DNA from: Escherichia coli 042
Lineage (GTDB): Bacteria > Pseudomonadota > Gammaproteobacteria > Enterobacterales > Enterobacteriaceae
DNA: 64,000 nucleotides
Strand: one strand, 5' to 3'
NCBI RefSeq assembly: GCF_000027125.1
Contig: NC_017626.1
Shown here: piece by piece, positions 12,098 through 40,882 of the stretch
Layout of the letters: each line of letters begins with the position of its first letter
Numbering within the stretch: position 1 is the first letter of the stretch
Made by a program: the position numbers and the translations under genes
Notes under the pieces: generated by a model
What the model was told of the DNA's origin: nothing
What the model saw: only the letters and a program-made list of their open reading frames with translations
Databases searched by the model: none

Positions 12098-12628
12098 ATG
12101 TCAACTCCTGAGGATGCTTTCAAAAAAAAATTACTAGCTGCTCAACAAGAAAAAGATGAACTTGTTAGGAAAAATCAAATTGATGCAGAGCGTAAAAAAC
12201 AAATCATTGCTGAAAAAATTAGTTTTTATCAAAAACACCAAAATGATTTCATACAACAAGTTATTGAATGGGCCAGTAGTGCAGATTTAAATATCTCATC
12301 ACTTAACATTAGTTATTACGATTATGGTCATTTATTTCAAACAACAGGCATAAGCATTGAATATGATGGTAAAAAAGTTCAGTTTATTCCGCAAGGAGTA
12401 GAACGTGGAACTTTTCTAGGTATCATAAAATTAGATTTTACTAACGCAAATTCATTCATTCAATACTATTTCGGTTTGTCTGCCAATAAAAATGAAGCCG
12501 AACCATATTGGACTTTTGTTCAATATGATACTCAAAACCCTAGTGCTTGGCAGGAAAACTCAAAGCGCATGTCAAAAGAGCTATTCTTTGAAATAATTGA
12601 AAGTATATTACTTCCACCAAAATCATGA
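12098..12628 (+). CDS. hypothetical protein (N-terminal coiled coil)
   Basis: 176-aa ORF with an SD-like gaggt upstream, followed by a 10-bp-stem hairpin. No family recognised. Confidence 0.6.
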   Translation: MSTPEDAFKKKLLAAQQEKDELVRKNQIDAERKKQIIAEKISFYQKHQNDFIQQVIEWASSADLNISSLNISYYDYGHLFQTTGISIEYDGKKVQFIPQGVERGTFLGIIKLDFTNANSFIQYYFGLSANKNEAEPYWTFVQYDTQNPSAWQENSKRMSKELFFEIIESILLPPKS

Positions 12629-12640
12629 ATATTGAATATT

Positions 12641-12667
12641 AGAAAAGCACTCAAGCAGTGCTTTTCT
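12641..12667. terminator. hairpin terminator after 12098..12628
   Basis: AGAAAAGCACtcaagcaGTGCTTTTCT: a perfect 10-bp stem whose arms supply the A and T runs. Confidence 0.6.
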
Positions 12668-12947
12668 AAATACCATACTCATTTCATTATAAATGAACCT
12701 CGATTTTAATAATTTATACCCTGCCCCCATAATCTTTAATTGCCATATTTATTAATACTGAGATTTAAGCTGTGAGATATATATTTAATATAAAACCACG
12801 ATCGTGTGATAAGACGTTTTCTATATTTACTGGAAATATTAAAATCAAACTCTCCGCTTAAACATAACATTATCATTTATGCCTTGCTATTGGTAAGTAT
12901 TAATTTTTTATCTATACAAGAATCTATTATTCAGATAAAGATTCATC

Positions 12948-13208
12948 TTATTCCGCCCTGTCATAAAAATAAAATGACCAAGCATCACAGAACCATTTAA
13001 TATTTTTATCATCAGATGGATATTCATATCCTTTAAGATTCTCTTTGAGAAAAGATATTTGTGATGGCATCAGCATCCCAACAAGTATCTTTATTAGATC
13101 TTCTGAAGGATATTTATCAAACTCATCTCTGTTAATACCTGTTTTTTCTTCAATGATCACTGAAGCTTTAACTATCTCACATAAAACATCATCTTTTTTA
13201 TTTCTCAT
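12948..13208 (-). CDS. hypothetical small protein (86 aa)
   Basis: ATG 13208 is preceded by a strong SD (ataAAGGAGataata). MRNKKDDVLCEIVKASVIIEEKTGINRDEFDKYPSEDL... The track ORF extends to 13292 without an SD. Confidence 0.55.
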   Translation of the reverse strand: MRNKKDDVLCEIVKASVIIEEKTGINRDEFDKYPSEDLIKILVGMLMPSQISFLKENLKGYEYPSDDKNIKWFCDAWSFYFYDRAE

Positions 13209-13327
13209 TATTATCTCCTTTATTGTTTTATATTTAATACCATATAAACAATAAATGTCAAAAATATTTAAAGACAATTTAAGAACAATCAACCCTGAAT
13301 GTATTTGATATGTTGTTCAATACAATA

Positions 13328-13379: not shown

Positions 13380-14030
13380 TTACCAGCTATCATTATTTCG
13401 CTTTTCAATTGCATCACGATAACGCTGTTGTTCCACAACATCCAGATTTGGATCAAATAACACACTTGATCCTTTCACAGCAATATCGGCATCAATCTCT
13501 GATTGGGGAGCATAGGCCTTATAACCATTAGGCTGTGAAGTGGCTGTGCGGATATATGTCCCATAGTGTTTCCCATTCATAGAACAACCGATGTAAGCCA
13601 ACAGGCAGGCAAACAGGAAAAAGAATGTCCATACTGTATTATAGCCGTTAATCGTATATCCACTTCCATTCACATCTGAAAACACGCCATTAAACCTGAC
13701 CGCATAGACAATCAGGAACGATGAAAGGATAACGGTTCTGCTTTTACCAACAGTTAAATGTTTACGCACAAATTTCACTGTTGGTAGTAGAGTGACCATA
13801 AAAAGAGCGATAGCAACACATACCAGCCATATAGGAAACAGTCCATATTTTTGTGTAATGTTCTGCGATACCGTCACCAAGGACAGCACCAAGAAGGCGT
13901 TGAGCAGAAAAAGTCTGACCGCCATCCATACCTTCACGTTCTTTTGCGTCTTACGGAGAAACAGCATCGGAGTCAGTGATGGTATGTTCATCAGCAGACC
14001 GATGATAAGCACCCAATAGATAGAGTTCAT
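13380..14030 (-). CDS. polytopic inner-membrane protein (about 5-6 TM), unknown function
   Basis: 216-aa ORF with several hydrophobic segments (e.g. VLIIGLLMNIPSLTPMLFL, LFLLNAFLVLSLVTV, IWLVCVAIALFMVTLL, VWTFFFLFACLLAYIGC) and a polar C-terminal tail. It starts 17 nt after the preceding gene's stop, so it is the last gene of a 3-gene operon. Confidence 0.7.
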   Translation of the reverse strand: MNSIYWVLIIGLLMNIPSLTPMLFLRKTQKNVKVWMAVRLFLLNAFLVLSLVTVSQNITQKYGLFPIWLVCVAIALFMVTLLPTVKFVRKHLTVGKSRTVILSSFLIVYAVRFNGVFSDVNGSGYTINGYNTVWTFFFLFACLLAYIGCSMNGKHYGTYIRTATSQPNGYKAYAPQSEIDADIAVKGSSVLFDPNLDVVEQQRYRDAIEKRNNDSW

Positions 14031-14046
14031 AGCGTTCTTCCTGTAA

Positions 14047-14601
14047 TTACCGGGCTTGCCAACCGTTATTGATTTTCACCAGAACAATTTTGGCTTCTTC
14101 TGGTTCAGACATCCCTTTCACGCCAGAGAAGGCATTTTTATCAACCCAGCCCGGCACGCCATCCAGTTTCCACGTATAGGTCACTTGCGTCATTTTAACG
14201 CCATTACCCTCACTCGGTTCAGTCCAGCTTTTAACCTCAGCTACGGCACGGTGACCAACACAGGCACCATCTTTACGATCCCAAAACTCAACCTCTTGGC
14301 CTTTGTCTGTTACTTCCAGAACATCTACGCTGCTAAAGCCGTTAGGTTGCTGCGAAACATCAAGCAGTCCCTGATTAGCCAGACCTTTCAAGATTTCATC
14401 ACTGGCACTGTATCCAGCAGAACGATAGCCATGGTTGACCTTAACCGGAAAACCTTTATTGAACGTAAAGTCATTGTCCTGAAGGGAGTAGCAGACCTTA
14501 GATTTTGATATATGCTCGTTTATCGCTTTCTCAAAGTCGCCTTTTTCACCGCAGCCTGATAACAACACGGCAAGTCCTGCAATGACTAAAAATTTACTCA
14601 T
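14047..14601 (-). CDS. lipoprotein, unknown function
   Basis: Signal peptide plus lipobox MSKFLVIAGLAVLLSGC|G. 184 aa. There is a 15-nt gap to the upstream lipoprotein gene. Confidence 0.75.
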   Translation of the reverse strand: MSKFLVIAGLAVLLSGCGEKGDFEKAINEHISKSKVCYSLQDNDFTFNKGFPVKVNHGYRSAGYSASDEILKGLANQGLLDVSQQPNGFSSVDVLEVTDKGQEVEFWDRKDGACVGHRAVAEVKSWTEPSEGNGVKMTQVTYTWKLDGVPGWVDKNAFSGVKGMSEPEEAKIVLVKINNGWQAR

Positions 14602-14615
14602 GGTTCTTATTCCTT

Positions 14616-15194
14616 TTAATGATTGATAGTGCCGTTTCTCAGAACAACCAGACGAACTGGCATATCGGCATTGTTTACTGTGGCGAAGCCACGAACTTCG
14701 AAGTTGTTGACTGTTCCAGTGACACTGACTTTCTGGCCTTTCTTGTAAGTAAGAACCGCATCATCAATACCAGAGTAGTAATCCAGCCAGACCATCCCGC
14801 CGCAGTAGCTTGTATCGGCTGTTTTAAAGAGCAGATAATAATTAGGGGCTGATTTGGGCATTCCCGTCATCATATCGCTGGCACTTCTGCCCTTCGTAAC
14901 CTCAAGAACAGTGGCATTGGTGATAGCGATCCTTTTGCCAGTCCATTTTTTTTCTGCTGCCATCGCATTTTCTTCATAGTCTTTGCAGACAGCACCAAGG
15001 CCAGTAATGGACGTCGCTGGACCACTATCCTGACCGGAAGCTGAAACCCGCAGCGCTTTATCAACGGTGCTGTTCAATGATGCCAGTGAAGAGTTAATTG
15101 CCCCATTAACGCTATTCACGCCTTCGTTGAGTTGCTGGCAGCCAGAAAGAAACACCAGAGAGATCGCCAGTGGTAAGAAGTTATGTCCTTTCAT
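14616..15194 (-). CDS. lipoprotein with C-terminal OB-fold (tRNA_anti-like lipoprotein family) domain
   Basis: Lipobox MKGHNFLPLAISLVFLSGC|Q. The C-terminal region ...WTGKRIAITNATVLEVTK...YYLLFKTADTSYCGGMVWLDYYSGIDDAVLTYKKGQKVSVTGTVNNF resembles the OB-fold putative-lipoprotein pattern as I remember it. Confidence 0.7.
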   Translation of the reverse strand: MKGHNFLPLAISLVFLSGCQQLNEGVNSVNGAINSSLASLNSTVDKALRVSASGQDSGPATSITGLGAVCKDYEENAMAAEKKWTGKRIAITNATVLEVTKGRSASDMMTGMPKSAPNYYLLFKTADTSYCGGMVWLDYYSGIDDAVLTYKKGQKVSVTGTVNNFEVRGFATVNNADMPVRLVVLRNGTINH

Positions 15195-15319: not shown

Positions 15320-15452
15320 ATCGATCGATATAAAACAAATGATAGACTCAGGCTATCATAGATAATATATCGATCGATAATATCAATTAAAAAACCGATC
15401 GATAAATCACTTTCAATCGTTAATGCCTATCAATATAAATTTATCGATCGAT
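15320..15452. promoter_or_regulatory. four ATCGATCGAT-type palindromes in the divergent promoter region (operator array; each contains a Dam GATC site)
   Basis: aATCGATCGATa (15320-15329). TATCGATCGATA (15368-15379). cCGATCGATA (15395-15404). TATCGATCGATt (15442-15452). Centre-to-centre spacing is 49/25/49 bp. An extra IR ATGATAGactcaggCTATCAT lies at 15339-15359. Confidence 0.6.
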
Positions 15453-15529: not shown

Positions 15530-15985
15530 ATGAGCATGGAAAACAACAACGAGCGAAGCTCTATGGAAATCTTCGAAAAAGATCAAAAAATCGCTTTTGT
15601 TGACTCGTTCAGCGATGCTGCTTTGTCTTACGAATACGAACAGGCGGGCTTCACCATTAATTTAATGCAACGCTCGGTTCTTCTCTTTAACCATAATATA
15701 AAGAAAAACGTAACTGCCAAGCAGTTGCGTAAAAATAATATAAAGAATAACGTAATGTCTTCGACATTGCGTAAAAATATGAACAGCACATTTATATATT
15801 CATATAACAACATCAGGGAAATCAACTACTCGCTGCCTGATTGCAGATCCGATGATGCCGAGAACTGTATTATGATTGATGATGTATTAAATCCAGTCTG
15901 GACGTTCAGGGTTCCATCTCACGCACATTATATTTGCGAGCAATGGGTGGAAGTATTTAATAACCATATTTTCTTTGACCCATAA
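15530..15985 (+). CDS. hypothetical protein
   Basis: 151-aa ORF with SD gagaggg upstream. No family recognised. Confidence 0.55.
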   Translation: MSMENNNERSSMEIFEKDQKIAFVDSFSDAALSYEYEQAGFTINLMQRSVLLFNHNIKKNVTAKQLRKNNIKNNVMSSTLRKNMNSTFIYSYNNIREINYSLPDCRSDDAENCIMIDDVLNPVWTFRVPSHAHYICEQWVEVFNNHIFFDP

Positions 15986-16110: not shown

Positions 16111-16581
16111 ATGTCTGGGAAAAATCCTTTTTGGAATTATGATTATAATGCGGCGCAACGTAATAGAGAAATTGTAGACTCTTACCAACAGGCAAATGAG
16201 GCAAGGCTGGATTCTCAACAGGCGCAGTTTGAAGCGTCTATGGCTAATGACAGGGTTAGCAGAATACAGATGCAGTTGAATAACACAATCAATAGCCATA
16301 AGAAGGTTGTGGCTGATTATGAGCAACGTCTTGAAGAATATAAACAAAATTTCTTTCGTGTAGCTTTACATAAAAACATTCTCTTCAGAACGGTTCGCAG
16401 ACTTCAGGAGGAATGGCCGGATAAAAATGAATTCATCCTTGATGAAATGCAAAGACAAAGAATTTTGTGTAATCAGCAGGACTATAGAGAAAGATGGTGG
16501 AATGCCATAAAAGATAATAATCTTGCTGACGATTATCTTGAGTTTCCATTTCCTAATAGAGAGATAAAAAACAAACCATAA
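16111..16581 (+). CDS. hypothetical protein (coiled-coil rich)
   Basis: 156-aa ORF (MSGKNPFWNYDYNAAQRNREIVDSYQQANEARLDSQQAQFEASM...). No family recognised. Confidence 0.55.
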   Translation: MSGKNPFWNYDYNAAQRNREIVDSYQQANEARLDSQQAQFEASMANDRVSRIQMQLNNTINSHKKVVADYEQRLEEYKQNFFRVALHKNILFRTVRRLQEEWPDKNEFILDEMQRQRILCNQQDYRERWWNAIKDNNLADDYLEFPFPNREIKNKP

Positions 16582-17097: not shown

Positions 17098-17505
17098 ATG
17101 TCTGATGCTTTAAAGATCATCAACAATATTCGTACTCTCCGTGCTCAGGCTCGTGAACTGACACTCGAAACCTTGGAAGAGATGTTAGAAAAACTCACTA
17201 TCGTTGTAGAAGAACGTCGTGAAGAAGAGGCCTCATTTCTAAAACAGCAGGAAGAGAAACAGGCCAAGCTGGAAGCATTCCGTCAGAAGTTGTTGGAAGA
17301 TGGCATAGACCCGGCAGAGTTGCTTTCAACTGTTAGCCCATCTTCTTCCAAGACAGGAGCGAAACGCGCCCCACGTCCAGCTAAGTATAAATATGTTGAT
17401 ACCGATGGTTCGGAAAAGACGTGGACAGGTCAGGGCCGAACTCCTCGTGCTATCGCTGCTGCGCTCGAAGCCGGTAAGACACTGGAAGATTTCGAGATCA
17501 AGTAA
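17098..17505 (+). CDS. H-NS family nucleoid-associated protein (island-encoded full-length paralogue)
   Basis: [44 protein letters not shown]... is the N-terminal oligomerisation domain. The C-terminal DNA-binding motif is [17 protein letters not shown]. 135 aa. It is distinct from the core stpA at 50350-50754. Confidence 0.92.
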
Positions 17506-22625: not shown

Positions 22626-23150
22626 TTACTTCATTGAATTACTGATGCTGCTCCAGACATCGTTTCCGTTGACTGTTGCTCCCGATCCTGATGAAGAGCC
22701 AGTTCCTGTAGAAACACTTCCATTTGCGATATTCCCAATCACGGGCATATCAATAGAAATGCTTTCGGATATACTTCCGGTCAGTTGACTTACTTTTTCC
22801 CTCGCAATCGAACAGGCTTTACTTATTGCTGCTTCCTTCGTTTTTTTAATTATTGAATCCACAGATGGCAGGCTGATGCCGAGGTTACCCACAGGCCAAG
22901 CGTCCGTACAACCAATCGTCTCAAGTGACTGATTGATGTTATCCATGAAATTCTTCGCTACCGGCTCTAACTGAGCCGCATCCTGCTTCATTGCGTTATA
23001 TTGCGCTTGTTTTAATGATGAGCTGACATCCGGGCTACAGACTGCTGCATTAGCTGTGGTTGCTGAAATTAATATTGTTGCGGGAAGGATTATTTTGAAA
23101 ATGCGGACACAGACATTTGTTCGCCATTTATTTTTATTAAGTTTATTCAT
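22626..23150 (-). CDS. small secreted protein co-transcribed with the TraY-like gene
   Basis: 174 aa with a signal peptide (...ILPATILISATTANA|A), 4 Cys and a Gly/Ser-rich C-terminus. Its stop is 16 nt upstream of the TraY-like start. Confidence 0.6.
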   Translation of the reverse strand: MNKLNKNKWRTNVCVRIFKIILPATILISATTANAAVCSPDVSSSLKQAQYNAMKQDAAQLEPVAKNFMDNINQSLETIGCTDAWPVGNLGISLPSVDSIIKKTKEAAISKACSIAREKVSQLTGSISESISIDMPVIGNIANGSVSTGTGSSSGSGATVNGNDVWSSISNSMK

Positions 23151-26422: not shown

Positions 26423-26689
26423 CTACTGCCAGTCAATGAGATCCTCTGGTGATATCCTATCCTTCTCCATCAATTTGAGGATCTTTTTCATTTTTAACTT
26501 ACGTGCCTTTTTCTCACCAATCTCCTGATAGTATTCTTCCCGCCGTTCCGCTACTACCTTGCGGAACTTCTTCAAGAGTTTGTTCAATGTCTTTATATCA
26601 GTGGTAGCCGCTTCAGCTTGGATTTTTCTATACATATACATAACGTGGAATTCATCAATCATATTAAACCTCTTAGTTTTATCATTCAT
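26423..26689 (-). CDS. truncated H-NS family protein (H-NST-like; oligomerisation domain only)
   Basis: 88 aa from ATG 26689 (SD gaGGGAaatcac). ...IKTLNKLLKKFRKVVAERREEYYQEIGEKKARKLKMKKILKLMEKDRISPEDLI parallels H-NS ...[19 protein letters not shown]...LIADGIDPNELL. There is no [12 protein letters not shown]-binding domain. Confidence 0.65.
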   Translation of the reverse strand: MNDKTKRFNMIDEFHVMYMYRKIQAEAATTDIKTLNKLLKKFRKVVAERREEYYQEIGEKKARKLKMKKILKLMEKDRISPEDLIDWQ

Positions 26690-30280: not shown

Positions 30281-33200
30281 TTAGAACGACCAGTTCACAC
30301 CAGCTACCGCGTTCCACGGGGATTCCACACCGGCACCATGGCTATACCCCACCCCGAGATGCCCGCTTAATGAACTGCTGAATGAGGCTTTAATACCTGC
30401 CTGGTATATTCCACGTCTGCCCGACAAATCATTGACAAAATTACCGTCATTATTCACTTTCACCCGGTTATCATCGACAAATTCTTTGCGCACAGCCGCC
30501 TTCAGCCACGGCTCAACTTCCATACCGTTCCCCAGACGCATGTTGTAACTCAGCGTTGCGCCCAGTTCACGATATATACTGCGGGTATCGACTGATTTCG
30601 ATTCCATGCCATTGGATAAATGATATTCGGGGTTATCAGCGGTGAACCCCGTTAACGATGCATACGGCGTCAGGTTCCAGTTACCATCGGTAAATCGCAT
30701 CCCGGTTTCAATGTGACCGCCCAGCCCGTTGCTGCGATAACTGCCGTTGGCGGCTCCACCGCTGCTCATTTTACCGGCTACGTTACTTTCAAAACGGTTC
30801 AGCTTCACGATACCGTCCAGATAGAAACCACTTTCATGTTCCCAACTGGCATAGCCGCCCAGAGAATAACTGCCCACACTGCCATGTCCTCCGCGATCAA
30901 AACCGATATGTGAATGGGAATAACCCATAAAAGCGCCCAGCGTGGCAATTCCTTCAGGAATATCATTACGGCTGTCGATCCCCACGGTCATTCCGGTCAG
31001 CGTCTGCTCAAACCCGGCACCCGCATCGGTGGTGACATTATTACGGGTGTTATACGTCGCCCCCCAGACATTATTGTTGTGTGGACTCGCTTTCATTATG
31101 TTCAACCGCTCGCGAATACTGTTTAGCTCAGCATCAAATACCAACGGTAATGTTGCTGCCATATTGAGTACGGCTGCCGTAGAAGGCGTGATGCGTTTCT
31201 CCGGGACGGGTGTCGGCGTTGGATCGGGAGTCGGGTCTGGTTTCGGATCCGGTTTTGGGTCTGGTTTTGGATCCGGTTTCGGATTTGGGTTGGGGTCCGG
31301 GTTGGGTTTGACATCATTGGTCAGGTTCCAGTTGCTGTTGCCGTCGCTTTTCAGGACATACTCATAGGTCCCAAGATCAACGAAACCGCCGGTATTACCC
31401 AGCGTAAACGAAGCATCCCCTCCCCCTGTTTTCACCAGCGTCATCGCGTCGTCAGACTGAGGGCTGACGCCGGTATCCTGAACAAAGATTTTAAAATTAC
31501 CAGTGGCGTTGTTGTTGACGACCAGTTGATCGCCCCGGGAGCCTGCAACGTTGGTATGCAGGTAGAAATTACCGCTGCCGGAAAGTTCACTGGTGGTCAG
31601 CGTATTGTAGATACCGTTAGTTGTGGCAGGCGCTGCTGTTTGTGCTGATAAATAAACATCACCGTCGTTGAGAAGCAAACTGTTTACTCTATATTCGCAG
31701 TTGCTGGTGCCTGCACAGGAATTATTGCTGTTAAGCCAGACACTGCCCCGGCTGGCAGCCGTCAGGTCGGCAAGCGTCGTATCGACGCCATTTCCGATAG
31801 TTAATGTCGCGCTATCGGTAATCCGGACCACCCCTTCAAGTTTAACTGGCGTAACATTATCCCGTGGCGTCATTAACGACAGGCTTCCTGTCGCGCCACT
31901 GACCGATGCATCCGCCAGCGTACCTGCGTAGACGATTGCCGTCCCGCCAGCGATCAGTAGATCTTCTGCCCGGGCCAGAGCCTGAAACTCATCTTTTGAC
32001 CGACCGAGGGTATATTGCCCACCGGAATTAACCTTTGTGGCGAAGTCCTGACCCAGGTTTTGCATTGCCCCACCGTTGCCAACCGTGGAATCGCGAGCTT
32101 CGGTACCTGCTAATACCAATAAATTACCGCCATTTTCCAGCAGCACATTGGTCGCTAAATTTCCGGCAATGGAAAAGGTGCCGTACTGGTGAGTACCGCT
32201 GATTTCAATACCGTTAGCCGTGCTCGTCTGGAGAGCGGCACCGCTGTTCTGGATGATATCTGTCGCTTTGCCATTATCGTTGACTGTCAGCGTACCGCCT
32301 TCATTAATCGTTGTTTTTACTGCCTCACCGTTAGCCGAAACTGTTTGTATTCCGCCGTCGTTAATCGTTGTCTCATTCGCCACCCCCTCGACGATTTGTT
32401 CGCCGCCGGTGAGCGTCGTGCCTGTCGCAGTGGCTTTTGTTTTGACGATCTCCCGCCCGCCCGCATTGACCTGTGTTTTGGCGGAAGTGGTGTCTGACTC
32501 CACGGTTAACACGCCGCCATTTGCCAGCAGGATATTGTTCGCCGCATCCTGCTCAATGCTGAACGCGACGCCATCAGCGCGTGTCCCTGTGACCCGCGTC
32601 GCTCTGGTGGTTGCAACCAACGCGCCCTGGCTACTTTGCTGTATCCCCGTTGCGCTGCCTTTCTCCCGCACATCGAGAGTGCCGCCTTCATTAAGCACCG
32701 AGTTTTCAGCCAGACCGCCCTCATTAACTACCTGTGAACCGCCATTAATAATGGAACCTTCCGCTGTCCCGTTTACCATAATTTGTTGTAGGCCAGAGAC
32801 GATATCGGTATTGATCGCCTTACCATAATTCTGAACGGTTTGCGTACCGCCATTGATGTGCGTTTTGTCTGTTGACCCACCATCAACAATTTGTTCACCA
32901 CTTTCAATATTTGCATCAGTGGCTAAACCATATACCGTTTGCTTGCCACCTTTGATATTTGCTTTTTCAGAAGTGGCACTGGCATATATTGTTTGGGTAC
33001 CAGCACTATTAAGTACAGTACCAACATCTTTTCCATAAACATCCATTTTGCCGTTGGCATTAATAATCGTGTCAACTGCCCGGGAACCAGTGACGACTGT
33101 TAATGAGCCAGCGTTTTCCAGCACTACATTTTTAGCTTCTGAATTCCTGATGTAGAAAACATCACCATAACTGTTGGTTCCTTCGATAAGTGTTCCGGAA

Positions 33201-34855
33201 GTCGTGGAAGCAATTAATGCGCCGCCGGATTGTTGCTCAACATGCTTAGCCTCACCACCGTCCTGAACCTCCAGAACGCCACCATTATTAAGTCTGATGG
33301 TATCTGTTTTAGCCTCCTTCTGGACAATCAGCTTACCGCCAGCATCAACGGTAGTATTTTTCGCCGAGGTTTTAGCCATTACCGTCAGTTCGCCGGTATT
33401 TTCCAGCACAACATAATTAGCCTCTCCTCCGGTAATAGTGAAGTGAGAGAGCTTGTTGTATCCTTCGATATCAGTCCCTGCGCCCGTGTTGGCAACTAAA
33501 GCACTGCCCGTCTCCTGGTTAACCCCATGTGCAATACCGCCGGTATAGACAATCAGCGAGCCTCCGGCGCTAATATTGCTGCCAGTTGCCGTACCATCTT
33601 TCTCAACAACCTGCCGGCTCCCAGAGGATATATTTGTCGTGTCAGCTTTCCCGCCGCTCTTGATATTTTGTGTTCCGCTGTTGATATTGGTGCCCGTGGC
33701 AATACCATAATTATTAATATTCTGTGTGCCACCATTAATTATGGTATTTGTCGCTTTTCCGGCAACATCCATAACGCCGCCATTATCTATTCGGGTCGCA
33801 TCAGCTTTAGCATTCGTTAAAACTGACATTGTTCCTTTATCTTTAATAATCGTCTTATTTGCCGAACCATATGCGTTTATGTCTAAATGACCACCGTTTT
33901 CCAGCAACACATTCTCTGCCACGGTATTGTGGATGGAGAATGCCCCTTCACTATTCGTACCGCTCACCGTCGTACCGTTAGTGTTTGTTTTTAAAATTGC
34001 ACCATCGTGCTGGGTAACATTTGTTGCCGTACCACCACTAACATCAAGCACGCCACCGGAATAAACTTCAATAACATCCGAGGTGCTGGTGTAATCAACA
34101 ATTTGCGTACCACCAGAATAGATCTGAGTATTTTTTGCCGTTGACTTACTATTCAGAGACTGAGTTCCGCCTTCAATCGTCGTGTCCAGCGCACGGCTCT
34201 CATATACTCTTTGCTCACCGCCATTTTTAATGGTGGTTGTTTCTACTGTGCTCTGTTCAACATACTGTCGACCACCATTTATGGTTGTGTTCGTCGCCAG
34301 ACTTCCTTGCGTGATGTCCTGATAACCGGACTTATTTATCGTTGTACCATCAACATGCCCCTGAGTTGATACTGACTGGCCTCCACCATCAATGATTGTT
34401 CCATTTGCAGTCCCCCCCTCTATGCGTGAAGTACCGCCCTTAATTGTCGTGTCATTGCTGGTACCACCTTTATAAACATATTGATTACCACTTTCGATTA
34501 TCGTGCCAGTAGAAATTCCTCCGTACTCAATTGACTGTCTGCCTCCATTAATGGTTGTATTATTAGCTTGCCCGTTAATATCGGCATGGATTGATACTAG
34601 TTGCTCGCCACCAGTTTCAATAATACTACTATTAGATATCCCACCATAGACCTCCTGCCGGCCATGGTTGATAATATGTGTGTTATTTGTTGTACCTCGT
34701 TCATCTACTCGTTGGTTGCCATCTACAGTCTCATCGTTTACCACACCAATAACATTAGTAGTGAAGGCCGCCATCCCGGGCTGGGCATATATTAAGGCAG
34801 ATATCAATAAGGAAAGTACTGAGCGGCGAAAATAATAGGGACTGGTCCTGTTCAT
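30281..34855 (-). CDS. ypjA: AIDA-I/Ag43-type autotransporter adhesin (YpjA-position orthologue)
   Basis: From ATG 34855: MNRTSPYYFRRSVLSLLISALIYAQPGMAA signal peptide. About 1000 aa of imperfect roughly 19-aa beta-helix repeats (…GG.Q.V..GG.A..T.I..GG…). A Pro-rich linker PNPDPNPNPKPDPKPDPKPDPKPDPTPDPTPTPVP. A C-terminal beta-barrel ending ...GVESPWNAVAGVNWSF. It occupies the same chromosomal position as K-12 ypjA. Confidence 0.85.
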   Translation of the reverse strand: MNRTSPYYFRRSVLSLLISALIYAQPGMAAFTTNVIGVVNDETVDGNQRVDERGTTNNTHIINHGRQEVYGGISNSSIIETGGEQLVSIHADINGQANNTTINGGRQSIEYGGISTGTIIESGNQYVYKGGTSNDTTIKGGTSRIEGGTANGTIIDGGGQSVSTQGHVDGTTINKSGYQDITQGSLATNTTINGGRQYVEQSTVETTTIKNGGEQRVYESRALDTTIEGGTQSLNSKSTAKNTQIYSGGTQIVDYTSTSDVIEVYSGGVLDVSGGTATNVTQHDGAILKTNTNGTTVSGTNSEGAFSIHNTVAENVLLENGGHLDINAYGSANKTIIKDKGTMSVLTNAKADATRIDNGGVMDVAGKATNTIINGGTQNINNYGIATGTNINSGTQNIKSGGKADTTNISSGSRQVVEKDGTATGSNISAGGSLIVYTGGIAHGVNQETGSALVANTGAGTDIEGYNKLSHFTITGGEANYVVLENTGELTVMAKTSAKNTTVDAGGKLIVQKEAKTDTIRLNNGGVLEVQDGGEAKHVEQQSGGALIASTTSGTLIEGTNSYGDVFYIRNSEAKNVVLENAGSLTVVTGSRAVDTIINANGKMDVYGKDVGTVLNSAGTQTIYASATSEKANIKGGKQTVYGLATDANIESGEQIVDGGSTDKTHINGGTQTVQNYGKAINTDIVSGLQQIMVNGTAEGSIINGGSQVVNEGGLAENSVLNEGGTLDVREKGSATGIQQSSQGALVATTRATRVTGTRADGVAFSIEQDAANNILLANGGVLTVESDTTSAKTQVNAGGREIVKTKATATGTTLTGGEQIVEGVANETTINDGGIQTVSANGEAVKTTINEGGTLTVNDNGKATDIIQNSGAALQTSTANGIEISGTHQYGTFSIAGNLATNVLLENGGNLLVLAGTEARDSTVGNGGAMQNLGQDFATKVNSGGQYTLGRSKDEFQALARAEDLLIAGGTAIVYAGTLADASVSGATGSLSLMTPRDNVTPVKLEGVVRITDSATLTIGNGVDTTLADLTAASRGSVWLNSNNSCAGTSNCEYRVNSLLLNDGDVYLSAQTAAPATTNGIYNTLTTSELSGSGNFYLHTNVAGSRGDQLVVNNNATGNFKIFVQDTGVSPQSDDAMTLVKTGGGDASFTLGNTGGFVDLGTYEYVLKSDGNSNWNLTNDVKPNPDPNPNPKPDPKPDPKPDPKPDPTPDPTPTPVPEKRITPSTAAVLNMAATLPLVFDAELNSIRERLNIMKASPHNNNVWGATYNTRNNVTTDAGAGFEQTLTGMTVGIDSRNDIPEGIATLGAFMGYSHSHIGFDRGGHGSVGSYSLGGYASWEHESGFYLDGIVKLNRFESNVAGKMSSGGAANGSYRSNGLGGHIETGMRFTDGNWNLTPYASLTGFTADNPEYHLSNGMESKSVDTRSIYRELGATLSYNMRLGNGMEVEPWLKAAVRKEFVDDNRVKVNNDGNFVNDLSGRRGIYQAGIKASFSSSLSGHLGVGYSHGAGVESPWNAVAGVNWSF
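31200..31315 (-). repeat. short tandem repeats encoding the (K/T)PDP proline-rich linker
   Basis: ggatccggttttgggtctggttttggatccggtttcggatttgggttggggtccgggttgggt: 6- and 12-nt periodic units within the autotransporter gene. Confidence 0.7.
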
Positions 34856-35252
34856 AAATTTCATCCTCTGAAAAGTGAATACTGAGTAGCGTTTAAGCGA
34901 CCTTAGCTTTGCTGCAACATCAGCCCACAGGCACCAGACCAGGGGATTCATCCTGAAGAGACAGCGCAAGTGTATTGTGTTCACCGCTCATCAAAGACAT
35001 CATGATGAAATGATGATATTCCGCATAAGAATGAGGCATTTTTTTAAGACATTGTGCTGAAGGATGATTGGATAAAAAAGTCAATCTTTTCAGGAAATAC
35101 GGCGTATTCTTTTCTTTCGACATTGAAGCCGTCGGAAAAATAAAATGATTTACATAATCGTTTCTGATGAATATCTTCTGCTCACATAAAAATCACACAA
35201 TAACATTGAGATTGCAGATTGTTTTACTTTTACAGCTTTCGTCCCCTCATTG

Positions 35253-35381
35253 TTGGGCAAATATTGGTAGAGTCAGAGCACGAAAGTTAATACCACGTTC
35301 GCACAGCTCCTCCAACAGCACGGCAAGATGCCGCATACTGCGCCCCAGTAGGTTCAGTTTGCAGACAACCAGTGTGTCACC
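35253..35381 (-). pseudogene. pinH: serine recombinase/invertase fragment (pinH-like remnant)
   Basis: The minus strand translates to [43 protein letters not shown]. This is the central segment of Pin/Hin/resolvase-type recombinases (…GDTLVV.KLDRLGRS..HL…L..RGI.F.SL). The N- and C-termini are missing. Confidence 0.75.
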
Positions 35382-35384
35382 TAC

Positions 35385-35515
35385 CGATAATGTCCTGAGC
35401 CGTTTGTTCAGTCCGGCCCTGCTGCCACGGTTTTACGTTGAAGTGGTAACCCTGAGCACGCAGTTCATCAGTCAGGCATGGTGCACCATAACGCTGTTGT
35501 TGCTGGGTAAGATCA
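35385..35515 (-). mobile_element. IS3-family transposase (OrfB N-terminal) fragment fused to the pin remnant
   Basis: The minus strand translates to ...[25 protein letters not shown]..., the characteristic YGxxR(L/I)t.eLr..G...n.k segment of IS3-family OrfB. It is frameshifted thereafter and no IS ends are visible. Confidence 0.6.
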
Positions 35516-35618
35516 AAAAACTTTCAGGCAGCTAAGGAAAGTTGAATCAGACATTAGATGAAATATTTCAACCAATTACAGCACCAATTTAAACTCAGTA
35601 AATCACAGCGCAGATCAA

Positions 35619-35650
35619 GGGGTTACGTGAAAGCGTAGCCCCTTTTTCTT
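35619..35650 (+). terminator. orphan intrinsic terminator (plus strand)
   Basis: GGGGTTACGtgaaagCGTAGCCCCtttttcttt: a 9-bp stem including one G-T pair, then a T-run. No intact plus-strand gene lies upstream. Confidence 0.55.
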
Positions 35651-35788
35651 TGGTAGTAGCAGCAAAATGGTTGTAGTGTAAAAAATAATCCCGTTTAATC
35701 AATCAATAATACATATTGTTTCAATCTACGTTATTATCTCTTTGTAAAACCTGCAGTTTATTTATCATTGAAAACTGCTTTTAGAACT

Positions 35789-37243
35789 TTATACAAGGGG
35801 ACGATTCTCAATGGGACTATCCTCAGGGGAATTTTCCTCAGAGGAACTATCATCAAAGTCATCATCCATAGATGAAATACCATCGAATGGTGCCACGCCC
35901 GTGATTAGTTTTATTTTATTATTACGATCAGTCAAGACTCCATTTAAACCATTTTCGCTGACGGATTTTAATAATTTATCATAACTCTTATTGTCATCAG
36001 GCACATTAAAAACACACGGAGTATCAACATCAAACAATGACGTTCCCCAGTTCACATATTGAATATCATAGTTACTGAAGTTCTGTCCAGAAAAGAAGCA
36101 TCCCTTAAAATCCAATCCACGTAAATTATATAAACCACCCTCTTCTTTTGGGAGAGCAATTTTAATTCTGGCTATCTCCCAGACAAAATTGCCATTTTTG
36201 TATTTGAATACCGTTTCAAGCTCTCCTCCAGACAACTTGACTTCTGGAAATAATTTGAAATTAAACCCTACATTATTATGTGTCAACGTAGATGAACAAA
36301 AGATGGAAAAAGCTTGCAGTGCTGAATTATAGCTATCGATTTTATCTTGAGGCTGCGCTCTTGGTAAAAACTTATAGCAACACTCATAAAAATTAAGTAG
36401 AAACTCTGATGACCTTCCATTTTTATCAAATAATACCCGCTGAAAATGCTGCACAAACTTATTCGTTTTTTCTTGAATATCTATGGTGTGTTCCTTTGAC
36501 TCTAACAAAGATGAATCCTGTTGAAGTGCATTGCTCATCTGGTTGAGGAACAACTGCATTTCTTTCAACTTATCTCCATAGTGACCTTTAACTTGCTGAG
36601 AATTTTTAGTTACAGTTGAAACCTTATCTGTGTGGTTTTCATATAAATTATGTGATTCCATACAGTCATTTGGCGGCGTTTCTGAAATAACACTACGCGT
36701 TCTACCTGGCTGAAGTGAAGCAACATGAAAATCACTTTTTCTTATATTGCCGAATAGGGTCTGTTCATTTCTCTTAGCGCATTCAATAAACTGATCAACA
36801 TTATTTTTATTAGATGACAGGTTAATTTCAGAAACCGCATTTTCTTTGTTCTCCAGCTTTAGTTTAACGAGAAGGTCTTCCCACACCGTTTTTTTTTAAA
36901 ATACTACGTCAGGCTCACCATCAGCAACTAACTCTTGATTATTATCAAAGTGTACGTTGTGTACTTTTAATTTATTTTCATTAGCATCATATTTAATACG
37001 TTTTAATTGTTCTCCGGCTCCCATAATGACAAAAGCATTGCCTTCATGATATTTACATTCAGACATCATTTTTTGTAAAATTTCAAGAGCACCGTTATAC
37101 GTCCCTGAGGCAGCTTCTTTACAAATTAATTTTATAATACCATAAGCTAGTAACTCCATGGATTTAGAAGATTTTCTTTCATTACAATTTCCACTATTTA
37201 TAAATGTGCTAGTGTTAATTTCGTTGCTTTTACTAACTAACAT
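35789..37243 (-). pseudogene. large hypothetical gene (ypjB/ypjC position) split by a single in-frame TAA into 115-aa and 365-aa ORFs
   Basis: ORF 36896..37243 ends ...GAC GTA GTA TTT TAA. The same frame continues AAA AAA ACG GTG TGG GAA... into ORF 35789..36886, whose first codon is GTG. The stop is created at a T4A9 tract (36889-36901). The C-terminal part has a pentapeptide-repeat-like stretch (LRGLDFKGCFFSGQNFSNYDIQYVNW) and an acidic tail. Confidence 0.6.
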
Positions 37244-37781
37244 TGTCTTTTCCTCAGTTAATGTCTACATGGCTATTTTTAATGTTATTATTGTTTGTCA
37301 CTATAAAAAATCGCTCATTTGAGACAATTGCTGGCATTAACAGCTTCATATGCTATACATGGTACTTTTAATTAATTTAGCACAAGAATGTTAAATTTAA
37401 TAAGCAAAAGGTTATTTCACTGTATGATAAAAACCACCCGTTATAATTTATTCGTGAGAATCGTTTTTTGAGTGTTAGAAATTTATATCTAAATAGCGTT
37501 GATTAATGACCAAAGCCAGACTCCTGTAATGCTCACAAGACTCTTCTGCATTCGACGGCGGTTCTAGTCAGTAGTAGATGTTTAAGGCGTGGCAGAGACA
37601 TTTCATCCTTACTCTAAGGCATTGTTCTACATACATTGGTCGTGGTACTCACTCAGCATAAGTGAGCGAAAAGAGAATAGTTCAGTGATTTGAGTAATTA
37701 ACCTGATTAAATGAAGGGGTATAATAAATGATAATACTCTGTCTTTATCGTTAATTACTTAATTCCACATGTAAGCAATTT

Positions 37782-37808
37782 GCCCGCTTGGCATAGCGGG
37801 CATTTTTT
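37782..37808 (+). terminator. orphan intrinsic terminator (plus strand) in the ypjC-side/ileY spacer
   Basis: GCCCGCttggcataGCGGGCatttttt. Confidence 0.65.
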
Positions 37809-37994
37809 CCAGGTACTTTTGAATGAGTACTGATGGATAAATACATTGCAGTGGCGTGCCACGTACCAAAACACCAGCCCTCATTCGAAACCACCCACCA
37901 CACTTCTTCCTTGAAATGGCGTTAGTCGTGAAATATAGACCGCCATCGAGTACCCCTTGTACCCTTAACTCTTCCTGATACGTGAATGATGATT

Positions 37995-38070
37995 TGGTGG
38001 CCCCTGCTGGACTTGAACCAGCGACCAAGCGATTATGAGTCGCCTGCTCTAACCACTGAGCTAAAGGGCC
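37995..38070 (-). tRNA. ileY: tRNA-Ile2 (anticodon CAU, lysidine-modified class), 76 nt with encoded CCA
   Basis: The reverse complement is ggccctttagctcagtggttagagcaggcgactCATaatcgcttggtcgctggttcaagtccagcaggggccacca. The cloverleaf is intact (U6-G67 wobble). It matches my recollection of E. coli ileX/ileY, and the position next to ygaQ-csiD identifies ileY. From the anticodon alone it would be read as Met. Confidence 0.9.
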
Positions 38071-38629
38071 TTGAGTATGCAATAACAATACTTATAAACC
38101 ACGCAATAAACATGATGATCTTATGATGTAAATAACAGATTTTTATGCGTTCTCATTCATCCTGGGTCGTCATTACCTGCGACATAAAACCCGACACCGC
38201 CTCCATTCGCAAAGTCGATACTCGCAGTCAACAAGCAAATGTTAATAATTAGCAATATCTATAGTTATCATCGATTCAATGATACTTTGTAATGATTTTG
38301 TATCTAATAATATAACTTTATTACATTAGCTGAAGAGTTTTCGCATCATTATGATATCTGTTACTTTTCACTCCATAAAAATAAACTTCATATAGCAATA
38401 TATTCTTTCATAGATCTTATTCTGCTAATCATTAGTTTCGTATGAGCGATTTTTGACAGTTGCCTCTCCAGACCACATCGATAATTAAAAAAACAGATTT
38501 AAGCATTATCCTTTTCCATATAAATATTGGATAAAAGTAGGACATCTGTTTGCAATTACTTTCACAACAATTAAACATTTTTATGTTTCCGTATACACCA
38601 TATTACTCTACCATTAGAGGAACTTTATT

Positions 38630-40882
38630 ATGTTTTCTATAAAACCAGGACCAAGAAATTTACCTATCGGCAACCCCACATTGTTATCATGGAACATTAC
38701 TGACGGGGATCTAAATTCCAAATTAAATACATTAGAATATCTAAACTGTATAACAAATATTATTAATTCTTGTGGAGTTTATCCTCAGGATTTAAAACAC
38801 AGAGAGATTATATCAACTTTTCATGCAGAAAAAGTCATTAATGATCTGTTAAAAAACGATTATAAAATTTCCCTTTTTCCAGATACAACTTACCGAGAGT
38901 TGAATAAAGCAGCACAGCGTAGCATTACAGCGCCAGACAGGATAGGAGAAGGAAAAACATGGGTTTATCAACGAGATACAATGGTTGAAAGAGGTGATAA
39001 CAGCGGTGTTCATCAGTATGGTCCAGCTGAACATTTCACTCACATTATATCTGACAAACCGTCCCCAAAAGATAAGTATGTTGCATATGCTATTAACATT
39101 CCTGACTATGAACTGGCAGCTGATGTATATAATATTAACGTAACGTCACCTACCGGCCAGCAAGAAACATTTAAAATATTAATCAATCCAGAACATCTAC
39201 GGCAAACACTTGAGCGTAAATCTCTTACTGCTGTTCAGAAATCACAATGTGAAATCATCACCCCCAAAAAACCTGGCGAAGCGATTCTTCATGCTTTTAA
39301 TGCCACCTATCAGCAAATCAGGAAAAATATATCTGAGTTTGCACGTTGTCATTATGGGTATATACAAATCCCTCCCGTAACCACTTTCCGCGCCGACGGA
39401 CCTGAAACTCCCGAAGAAGAAAAAGGTTACTGGTTTCACGCTTATCAACCCGAAGATCTTTGTACTATCCATAATCCAATGGGAGATTTGCAGGATTTTA
39501 TCGCATTGGTTAAAGATGCCAAAAAATTTGGTATCGATATCATCCCTGATTATACATTTAACTTTATGGGAATCGGGGGTAGTGGTAAAAATGATCTGGA
39601 TTATCCCTCTGCCGATATACGAGCGAAGATCAGTAAAGATATAGAAAGTGGTATCCCTGGCTATTGGCAAGGTCAGGTCTTGATTCCCTTTATTATAGAT
39701 CCATTAACAAAAGAACGTGACCAAATCCATCCAGAAGATATACATCTCACTGCAAAAGACTTCGAAGCAAGTAAAGATAATATTTCTAAGGATGAATGGG
39801 AAAACCTCCATGCATTAAAAGAAAAGCGTTTAAATGGAATGCCTAAAACAACACCCAAAAGTGACCAGGTTATTATGTTGCAAAATCAATACGTTCGTGA
39901 AATGCGAAAATATGGCGTACGAGGTTTACGTTATGATGCAGCAAAACACTCAAAACATGAACAAATAGAGAGGTCGATAACCCCACCGCTTAAAAATTAT
40001 AATGAGCGGTTGCACAATACAAATTTATTTAATCCAAAATATCAAAAAAAAGCTGTTATGAATTACATGGAATACCTGGTAACTTGTCCGTTAGATGAAC
40101 AACAAATGTCATCGCTGCTTTATGAAAGAGATGATTTAAGCGCCATTGATTTTTCATTGCTCATGAAGACGATAAAAGCCTTTTCATTCGGTGGAGATCT
40201 CCAAACCCTTGCATCAAAACCGGGCTCCACAATCTCAAGCATTCCATCAGAAAGACGGATATTGATTAACATCAACCACGATTTCCCTAACAATGGTAAT
40301 CTTTTCAATGACTTTTTATTTAACCATCAGCAAGATGAACAATTAGCAATGGCATATATGGCCGCTCTCCCGTTCAGCAGGCCTTTAGTTTACTGGGATG
40401 GTCAGGTATTAAAATCAACGACTGAGATTAAAAATGATGATGGGTCCACTCGTGTCGGCGGTGAGGCGTGGCTTAATAAAGGTTGCTCTACCTATCAGCA
40501 GCTCTACAATGAATTCCACGCATTATATATAGATAAAGCAGGAATATGGAGCGCATTTGAGGGTGTATTTGCAACTAAAAATGTTCTGGCCTTTAGTCGT
40601 GGGGATTCTGTGAACATTAATCACTCTCCTCATGATGGACTAGTTATAATAAATAAAGGAAACGAAGAAGTTGAAGGTACCTGGCCTAACAAATTGCAAC
40701 CTGGAATATATAAAAACATGGGGAGTAATAGCGCTAACATTATTATTAATAATACCCGCAAAAGTATCCCCCCAGGTAAAGCATTTATGCTTAGAGGCGG
40801 AACTCTAAATATCAATATTCCTGGGCGTAGCGCTCTTCTTTTAGGGAAAACTGGAGAACCGCCGAACTATCTCTATTTGTAA
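38630..40882 (+). CDS. ygaQ: GH13 alpha-amylase-family protein, intact 750-aa form of YgaQ
   Basis: GH13 region II-like GVRGLRYDAAKH and region I-like GIDIIPDYTFNFMG are present. There is no signal peptide. It sits between ileY and csiD as ygaQ does in K-12, where it is annotated as a pseudogene. Confidence 0.75.
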   Translation: MFSIKPGPRNLPIGNPTLLSWNITDGDLNSKLNTLEYLNCITNIINSCGVYPQDLKHREIISTFHAEKVINDLLKNDYKISLFPDTTYRELNKAAQRSITAPDRIGEGKTWVYQRDTMVERGDNSGVHQYGPAEHFTHIISDKPSPKDKYVAYAINIPDYELAADVYNINVTSPTGQQETFKILINPEHLRQTLERKSLTAVQKSQCEIITPKKPGEAILHAFNATYQQIRKNISEFARCHYGYIQIPPVTTFRADGPETPEEEKGYWFHAYQPEDLCTIHNPMGDLQDFIALVKDAKKFGIDIIPDYTFNFMGIGGSGKNDLDYPSADIRAKISKDIESGIPGYWQGQVLIPFIIDPLTKERDQIHPEDIHLTAKDFEASKDNISKDEWENLHALKEKRLNGMPKTTPKSDQVIMLQNQYVREMRKYGVRGLRYDAAKHSKHEQIERSITPPLKNYNERLHNTNLFNPKYQKKAVMNYMEYLVTCPLDEQQMSSLLYERDDLSAIDFSLLMKTIKAFSFGGDLQTLASKPGSTISSIPSERRILININHDFPNNGNLFNDFLFNHQQDEQLAMAYMAALPFSRPLVYWDGQVLKSTTEIKNDDGSTRVGGEAWLNKGCSTYQQLYNEFHALYIDKAGIWSAFEGVFATKNVLAFSRGDSVNINHSPHDGLVIINKGNEEVEGTWPNKLQPGIYKNMGSNSANIIINNTRKSIPPGKAFMLRGGTLNINIPGRSALLLGKTGEPPNYLYL

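Follow-up and report, generated by a model that had tools for sequence, protein, structure and literature searches.

The DNA considered here is a stretch of 64,000 nucleotides from the chromosome of Escherichia coli 042 (the window), and our subject is a cluster of three genes on its minus strand, here called P1, P2, and P3, which encode two lipoproteins and a polytopic membrane protein. In this cluster we see the form taken here by a module that is conserved in the backbone of ROD21-like (EARL) islands and is not cargo: P2, a lipoprotein of the SEN1982 family, is the invariant core of this module, P1 is an optional member, and P3 is one of two alternative membrane partners. The genes and the signals around them are as follows.

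14616-15194, minus strand: P1, an open reading frame (ORF) of 192 aa; lipoprotein and optional member of the module
14047-14601, minus strand: P2, an ORF of 184 aa; SEN1982 family lipoprotein and invariant core of the module
13380-14030, minus strand: P3, an ORF of 216 aa; membrane protein, one of two alternative partners of P2
13348-13328, minus strand: terminator-like hairpin with an 8-bp stem (5 GC pairs) and a T-rich tail, 32 nt past the P3 stop codon
15195-15529, no strand assigned: divergent intergenic control region holding four copies of ATCGATCGAT; the divergent gene on its far side is at 15530-15985
15320-15329, 15369-15378, 15394-15403 (one mismatch), and 15443-15452: the four ATCGATCGAT copies

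Arrangement of the module across islands

A scan of genomes with a P2 profile, in which a single C-terminal peptide pattern was used and distant relatives are under-sampled, yielded 42 loci, all but one of them (41/42) from Enterobacterales and spread across many genera; a MobQ relaxase gene lies within the 8-kb flanks of 34 of the 42. Arrangements were counted in 40 loci with a full-length P2, comprising 36 of the scan loci, three plasmid loci, and L056, a separate locus in Salmonella. In many of them the place of P3 is taken by ZnR, a protein of 91 aa that has a CPFC...CTGC zinc ribbon at its N-terminus together with two transmembrane (TM) helices. The arrangements are:

P1-P2-P3: 5 of 40 loci
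P2-P3: 7 of 40 loci
P1-P2-ZnR: 8 of 40 loci
P2-ZnR: 13 of 40 loci
P1-P2: 2 of 40 loci
P2 alone: 5 of 40 loci

P1 is thus present in 15 of the 40 loci, while P3 follows P2 in 12 and ZnR does so instead in 21, from which we conclude that only P2 is constant, that P1 can be absent, and that P3 and ZnR are alternatives in the place of the membrane partner. The three genes that an earlier note, made from the sequence of the window alone, had grouped as one set are accordingly not a fixed unit, since only 5 of the 40 related loci carry all three.

The control region upstream of the module is conserved as well. ATCGATCGAT is a 10-bp palindrome centered on the Dam site GATC, and its four copies (15320-15452), which lie within 133 bp at start-to-start spacings of 49, 25, and 49 bp, are the only matches with up to one mismatch in the 64-kb window; the unusual operator array that the earlier note had seen in the promoter region is therefore real. 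The array is conserved ahead of the P2 module in the islands L003-L044 and L056, whose P2 proteins are only 45-88% identical. In most related islands ATCGATCGAT precedes the module, ~125-270 bp upstream of P1 where P1 is present and 165-300 bp upstream of P2 in islands that lack P1, and in most loci these module-upstream copies are the only ones in 16 kb; it was not found in the loci of the plasmid relatives described below. Since ATCGATCGAT stands upstream with or without P1, we count the operator as part of the module, with P1 apparently inserted between that operator and P2. The array suggests a dedicated repressor site, a control sensitive to Dam methylation, or both.

P2 itself is a mosaic with respect to its partner. 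The median identity of residues 119-184 to the window copy is 86% in loci with P3 versus 62% in loci with ZnR (Mann-Whitney p = 2e-4), whereas the N-terminal two-thirds of the protein show no partner-linked difference (78% versus 80%, p = 0.79). Recombination breakpoints must therefore lie inside P2, with the C-terminal sheet traveling together with the membrane partner, a pattern that could reflect co-adaptation or plain adjacency.

In complete E. coli genomes, the 2.7 kb spanning the operon find matches in 246 of 5,426, every one of them chromosomal; at most 16 genomes have a second match. The best-matching of these genomes (L001, 99.8% identity) carries the operon in a ~26-kb island directly after ssrA, where genes for an integrase, a DUF3644 protein, a methyltransferase, TraD (identified by its match to Pfam TraD), and the MobQ relaxase, and then two small genes, come before it; four small genes follow, and after these come genes for an H-NS paralogue, TraW, DotA/TraY, a truncated H-NS, a helix-turn-helix regulator, and, at the far end of the island ahead of glaH, DUF6387. 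The placement of the three genes inside a mobilizable block, as claimed by the earlier note, is borne out by this gene set (integrase, MobQ, TraD, TraW, DotA/TraY, and H-NS paralogues).

The same set is attributed to ROD21-like (EARL) mobilizable islands in the passages that describe them (PMC6035254, PMC10763509), and the class is recognized here by a P4-type integrase at the attachment site, a recombination directionality factor and a conserved gene at the far end, a MOBQ relaxase with TraD, one or more H-NS paralogues, and the lack of a type IV secretion system (T4SS) of its own. By gene content, the window is accordingly E. coli chromosome with an EARL island at ssrA; the published definition, in the portion of PMC6035254 that gives it, has insertion at an Asn-tRNA gene instead. 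With ROD21, compared by its published description, the window island shares the name of P2, the P4-like integrase, MobQ, TraD, H-NS paralogues, and DUF6387, and differs from it in its site (ssrA versus the Asn-tRNA gene) and in carrying TraW and DotA/TraY where ROD21 carries type IV pilus genes.

The genes and their products

The three co-directional ORFs form one compact transcription unit, running from the operator-rich promoter region through P1, P2, and P3 to the hairpin. They are as tightly packed as the earlier note had it and all lie on the minus strand, with gaps of 14 nt (P1/P2) and 16 nt (P2/P3) where that note gave 15 and 17 nt, and each is preceded by a purine-rich ribosome-binding site (GAGGA, AAGGAA, and AGGAAG). 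The operon is indeed less AT-rich than its surroundings (GC 0.448 versus 0.357 and 0.363 in the flanks). Pairwise ratios of nonsynonymous to synonymous substitution (dN/dS) against homologues of 77-94% amino acid identity are 0.06-0.22 for all three, which are therefore genuine genes under purifying selection. The close homologues listed for the three proteins are >73% identical and come from Enterobacterales wherever an organism is named. The description of the products as two lipoproteins and a polytopic membrane protein holds, P1 and P2 both having an L-S-G-C lipobox and P3 five hydrophobic segments.

P2 combines its LSGC lipobox with Gly at +2 and a short tether, such that the first helix begins ~5 residues past the lipid-attachment Cys; by the +2 rule it should reside in the outer membrane. 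Its invariant cysteines are C17, C37, and C114 (alignments A1, A3, and A4), and the lipoboxes together with two further invariant Cys in each of P1 and P2 fit disulfide-bonded periplasmic domains, so that P2 is probably disulfide-bonded in the periplasm. Apart from signal-peptide matches, neither P2 nor P3 matches a family in Pfam, NCBIfam, PADLOC, or PHROGs, in agreement with the earlier view that P2 lacks a recognizable family. The near-identical RefSeq protein WP_000033071.1, from the 99.8%-identical E. coli locus, is named "SEN1982 family lipoprotein", a name that rests on RefSeq's own rule and has no matching model in NCBIfam release 20. P2 belongs to this family, whose members are ~175-190 aa long and have a lipobox and two conserved Cys after the lipid-attachment Cys, and it carries the family motifs C...FP, W(D/N)...G(A/F)CVG..V.E...WTEP, YTW.L...P.W, and KT..GW. 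Homology to a housekeeping envelope pathway, which the earlier note had named as grounds for abandoning its proposal, was looked for and is rejected, as the matches to LptM and LPAM are confined to the signal peptide.

The structural model of P2 has an N-terminal helix packed on a C-terminal curved beta-sheet, and its confidently modeled part has a cystatin/NTF2-like fold. Residues 37-112 of the model are unreliable, an insert of ~75 residues being left unmodeled, and the match spans only ~70-80 residues of a generic alpha+beta roll at 3-13% sequence identity; the likeness to cystatin/latexin and NTF2/VirB8-like rolls is one of fold only. Cystatin inhibitors combine the cystatin fold with an inhibitory wedge (an N-terminal Gly, a QxVxG loop, and a PW loop), and P2, which lacks the QxVxG motif, is not a member of that superfamily. 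A search of viral folds (BFVD) gave no match below E 0.02. For SEN1982 itself, the account in PMC10655114 includes a Phyre2 suggestion of a PadR-like winged helix-turn-helix at 24% coverage. This DNA-binding idea finds no support here: the protein is a lipoprotein, its conserved Cys pairs are probably periplasmic disulfides, and the published region corresponds to the unreliable, low-confidence part of the P2 model.

P1 has the same lipobox, with Gln at +2, followed by a low-complexity tether of ~50 residues, rich in Ser/Asn/Ala/Gly, that links the lipid-attachment Cys to the globular part, in which Cys70 and Cys131 are invariant among aligned homologues. Residues 69-166 align to positions 53-136 of the 146-position Pfam profile PF12869 (tRNA_anti-like), including the helix-then-strand motif Y..N...A..K..GK.I.I.....V, but at E 0.0019 and 18.2 bits the match stays below the 23.5-bit gathering threshold and P1 is not a member; the 33 close homologues all stay below the threshold to a similar degree and, being >80% identical, are not independent. 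We therefore speak of resemblance, not membership, to PF12869 OB-fold lipoproteins and to the NCBIfam J517_1871 family lipoprotein. The AlphaFold2 model of P1 is unusable (pLDDT 39.6) because the alignment is too shallow, all listed homologues being at least 80% identical. An OB-like domain is the probable identity of the globular part; of the earlier designation as a tRNA_anti-like OB-fold lipoprotein with a Ser/Ala/Asn-rich linker, the lipobox and linker stand, while the Pfam match falls short and the fold is only probable. P1 also has a weak match (E 0.0018, over 60 residues) to PHROG 8545, annotated "superinfection exclusion Sie-like". When the PDB was searched with sequence profiles of P1 and of P2, no match had an E-value under 0.4.

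The five hydrophobic segments of P3 (residues ~4-26, 34-56, 63-85, 98-117, and 130-152) are followed by a conserved C-terminal tail of 64 residues with mixed charge. The positive-inside rule predicts an outside N-terminus and an inside C-terminus, with TM4 weak and the side of the tail correspondingly uncertain; the earlier description of 5-6 TM segments and a charged cytoplasmic tail is thus sound as to segments and charge and only predicted as to the side. A homologue on a Citrobacter plasmid (43% identity) keeps the tail motif and adjoins two other lipoproteins, one of which also lies between P2 and P3 in L037. A relationship of P3 to the polytopic segment of the TM-fused P2 relatives described below was considered and rejected (hhalign probability 0.3%; no match in hmmsearch).

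Wider relatives of P2 and possible functions

At the core of the module is a periplasmic lipoprotein domain lying close to the membrane, which is found again on mobile elements of many kinds. An exhaustive phmmer search gathered 278 cluster representatives, down to ~25% identity, most of which are stand-alone lipoproteins with Gly or Ser, never Asp, at +2. In several the P2 domain forms the C-terminus of proteins of 370-670 aa, which have an FHA domain at the N-terminus and also contain a small beta domain ("RGTIIKVPD") and between one and five TM segments; one such fusion adjoins a divergently transcribed gene for an ECF sigma factor. One stand-alone relative clusters with a Ser/Thr-kinase/TPR regulator and polytopic proteins bearing C-terminal zinc ribbons, and another is flanked by a DUF6232 protein and a polytopic zinc-ribbon protein of 583 aa.

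By tblastn, full-length relatives with 25-29% identity and the same motifs were found on 620 plasmids, 492 of them conjugative. Three plasmid relatives were inspected: that of an IncX4 plasmid comes after topB-hha-hns and has Asp at +2; that of a Klebsiella plasmid of mating-pair formation (MPF) type MPF_I stands alone in the maintenance region; and on a 9.6-kb MOBP mobilizable plasmid of Providencia a 46%-identical P2, preceded by a 103-aa zinc-ribbon/TM protein, lies ~1 kb upstream of mobC and the relaxase gene.

Small lipoprotein/inner-membrane pairs beside transfer genes are typically exclusion functions (TraT/TraS, TrbK, Eex, ExcA, and ColE1 exc), and these act in the envelope of the recipient. 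We tentatively propose, at a probability of about 0.3, that the module provides envelope-level exclusion or an immunity-type self-protection for the cell that carries the element, a reading that is based on its position near transfer genes, its restriction to mobile elements in Enterobacterales, and the inhibitor-like fold. Counted in its favor are the proximity of MobQ, the conserved operator, the modularity, the relatives on mobile elements, the periplasmic location, the weak Sie-like match of P1, and the mouse phenotype of SEN1982 mutants described below. Under this proposal P2 would bind or block some target that is accessible in the periplasm while DNA is being delivered, for instance a component of the arriving transfer or injection apparatus or the enzyme with which it degrades the wall; P3 or ZnR, in the inner membrane, would anchor or support that action; P1 would be an accessory able to span the periplasm; and through the GATC palindromes expression would depend on a dedicated regulator, on how newly acquired DNA is methylated, or on both. 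The known pairs (F TraT/TraS, IncP TrbK, pKM101 Eex, R64 ExcA, SXT Eex, and ColE1 exc1/exc2) are likewise small lipoproteins or inner-membrane proteins encoded by the element near its transfer genes. The module is unlike them in that it shows no sequence or profile similarity, lies outside any T4SS operon, occurs with several MPF types, and does not covary with TraY.

A number of observations weigh against exclusion. Searches with P1-P3 against exclusion, superinfection-exclusion, and defense families in Pfam, NCBIfam, and PADLOC at E up to 1 gave no match (zero PADLOC components for any of the three), so that the remark in the earlier note that the set matches no known exclusion family (TraT/TraS/Eex/ExcA, Cor/Llp) stands, and tblastn found no homologue of P1 or P2 in 50,697 phage genomes. 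Entry exclusion of the classical type is directed at one particular component of a T4SS, and these islands have no T4SS of their own, while relatives of P2 occur in MPF_T, MPF_I, MOBP, and MOBQ contexts alike. The link with a TraY-like gene, for which the earlier note had proposed a check of co-occurrence, is not obligate: TraY is found within the 8-kb flanks of only 3 of the 42 scan loci (L012, L022, and L029), and we reject a TraY-specific exclusion like that of R64 ExcA on this count. In L056 a TraW-like gene and an adjacent 884-aa gene have the same layout. Overall dN/dS is low and diversifying selection was not seen; the cystatin/NTF2-like fold is generic and part of the model unreliable; and the partner-linked mosaicism may be plain physical linkage. 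Direct contact between P2 and its partner is sterically doubtful, since P3 and ZnR have almost no periplasmic loops, and a lipoprotein so closely tethered to the outer membrane would probably not reach them. The distant relatives, finally, in which P2 is joined through TM segments to cytoplasmic FHA and beta domains or stands beside ECF sigma or Ser/Thr kinase genes, fit sensing better than a block.

A serious alternative, judged only a little less likely than exclusion, is accordingly an envelope sensor, in which a P2-type domain that binds a ligand or protein would, with a small inner-membrane partner, signal mating contact, phage attack, envelope stress, or a similar event to the cytoplasm and so modulate expression, excision, or transfer of the island. 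The fusions place P2 as a C-terminal extracytoplasmic domain, and the divergent ECF sigma factor gene gives an anti-sigma-like layout; these two observations point at least as much to envelope sensing as to exclusion. The kinase/TPR cluster with its zinc-ribbon membrane proteins, the repeated pairing of P2-like lipoproteins with membrane proteins bearing cytoplasmic zinc ribbons, and the equally short tether from anchor to first helix in lipoprotein and TM-anchored forms are consistent with it. Paradigms are NlpE-CpxA and RcsF-IgaA, in which the sensor is an outer-membrane lipoprotein and its partner sits in the inner membrane; one of these lipoproteins, NlpE, contains an OB-fold domain, and the long tether of P1 is of the periplasm-spanning kind. 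However, there is no homology to these systems: P3 and ZnR have neither sensor-kinase nor IgaA-like domains, and no signalling domain was recognized in either with Pfam and NCBIfam. Moreover, hhalign finds no similarity of P3 to the polytopic part of the fused relatives, the ECF and kinase neighborhoods are single cases on short metagenomic contigs, and the IncX4 and MPF_I plasmid homologues have no adjacent membrane partner. A stronger version, in which the P2-type domain is a new extracytoplasmic sensor domain and forms with a minimal partner a trans-envelope device for sensing mating contact, phage attack, or envelope damage, seems to us rather doubtful; the island or plasmid would then adjust its own excision, transfer, or silencing, with the GATC-palindrome operator adding control by methylation state.

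The module might instead be kept for the benefit of the host and not of the element, with P2 and its helpers shielding the envelope from host enzymes, antimicrobial peptides, or complement, for example as a periplasmic inhibitor. P2 is periplasmic, probably disulfide-bonded, and cystatin-like in its modeled fold, and TraT doubles as a serum-resistance factor. In the pooled transposon screen of Silva et al. 2012, as it is reported in PMC10655114 and PMC6968874, insertions in SEN1982 were counter-selected in mouse spleen and liver, which shows that the family has a phenotype. We consider this explanation unlikely, however: the effect in mice was seen in a pooled screen and could be a polar or indirect one, conservation of the family is just as strong on plasmids and in the islands of environmental Enterobacterales, plant pathogens, and insect symbionts, the QxVxG motif is absent, and the fold match covers only a short generic roll.

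Decidedly unlikely is a donor-side accessory of transfer, by which the module would help the excised island to use the mating apparatus of a helper plasmid, for instance as an envelope adaptor or a VirB8/NTF2-like scaffold. Its constant position a few kb from MobQ and TraD, the place of P2 just upstream of mobC and relaxase on the small MOBP plasmid, and the NTF2/VirB8-like fold matches would suit this, but P2 occurs in four different MOB/MPF contexts and outside the T4SS operon in IncX4, and the module is convergent to MobQ with variable cargo between them. Very unlikely is anti-phage cargo, a superinfection exclusion at the envelope with no part in the biology of the island, since P2 behaves as backbone and neither PADLOC, the phage genomes, nor BFVD gave a significant match, even though the module adjoins a variable hotspot that elsewhere holds defense-like cargo (an AAA ATPase with DUF4435 in L004) and P1 has its Sie-like match.

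If the exclusion that we tentatively favor is true, the module is a new family of a known kind; if sensing is true, it is more unusual. The P2 family is already named in RefSeq and mentioned in the ROD21 papers, and so is not an undiscovered object: the passages of PMC10655114 on these genes give SEN1982 as an uncharacterized lipoprotein and list a membrane protein, SEN1981a, beside it. A keyword search of ROD21/EARL papers (PMC10655114, PMC6968874, PMC6035254, and PMC10763509) turned up neither the modular architecture nor the GATC-palindrome operator, the partner-linked mosaicism, the plasmid relatives, or the FHA- and TM-fused relatives of P2. The three-gene cluster can now be described as a defined unit, in which a core gene under a conserved operator is combined with either of two membrane partners and, in some islands, with a tethered lipoprotein, and which has distant fused relatives. 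ROD21-like islands are widespread in Enterobacterales; ICEKp258.2, in the epidemic Klebsiella ST258 clone, is one of them, and so is a pathogenicity island of Salmonella Enteritidis. Near the MobQ relaxase of such islands P2 stands out by recurring across many genera and keeping its own operator; to know its role, whether a block to re-entry of related elements, envelope sensing, or protection of the host, would close a gap in our understanding of the spread or persistence of these elements, and might account for the attenuation that is reported for SEN1982 mutants in vivo.

Neighboring genes and related loci

Two bacteria carry two islands each. In Enterobacter adelaidei (L025 and L029) the P2 gene of L029 (8001-9621) is interrupted by the insertion of a transposase gene, and the second copy is intact, while in Cedecea neteri the co-resident islands L034 and L045 have divergent P2 alleles with different partners (P3 versus ZnR). 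These cases (n=2) are compatible with the logic of exclusion groups.

On ~35 Klebsiella IncFIB/IncHI1B plasmids (L002, 4751-6537) a remnant of the module lies between IS5 and IS903B, beside a fimbrial operon, and consists of a P1 without signal peptide, a divergent P2, and P3. The idea of the trio as an independent cassette on these plasmids is rejected, as the defective P1 and the flanking insertion sequences mark an island remnant.

The stretch from P2/P3 to the MobQ relaxase gene is variable cargo across islands. In the window (12098-13292) it holds two small genes, of 176 and 114 aa, with unassigned products; in the Yersinia island L004 (7812-9885) it holds the AAA ATPase and DUF4435 protein, a pair that is presumably PARIS-like; and in L013, L016, and L017 large unrelated ORFs stand downstream of P2.

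On the other side of the operon, a 156-aa ORF at 16111-16581, between the operon and the H-NS gene, matches Pfam Nmad5 (nucleotide modification associated domain 5) below threshold, with 21 bits (E 4e-4) where the cut-off is 27. The H-NS paralogues of the island are full-length at 17098-17505 and truncated (79 aa, according to the annotation of L001) at ~26423-26662, and the P2 relative of the IncX4 plasmid (L052) likewise comes directly after hha and hns; genes for P2-type lipoproteins may tend to adjoin those of xenogeneic silencers.

Directly downstream of the DotA/TraY-like gene is a 174-aa ORF (22626-23150, minus strand) without a family match, which occurs together with TraY again in L012. 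In R64 (IncI1) the exclusion gene excA comes after traY, and by analogy the 174-aa ORF may be a better candidate than the operon studied here for exclusion linked to TraY.

Past the far end of the island, ~10 kb of the window (30281-40882) are absent from L001. They contain genes for an AIDA-type autotransporter adhesin of 1567 aa, DUF5507/DUF5508 genes, and an alpha-amylase-like gene, and we take them to resemble the ordinary E. coli K-12-type chromosome around ypjA.

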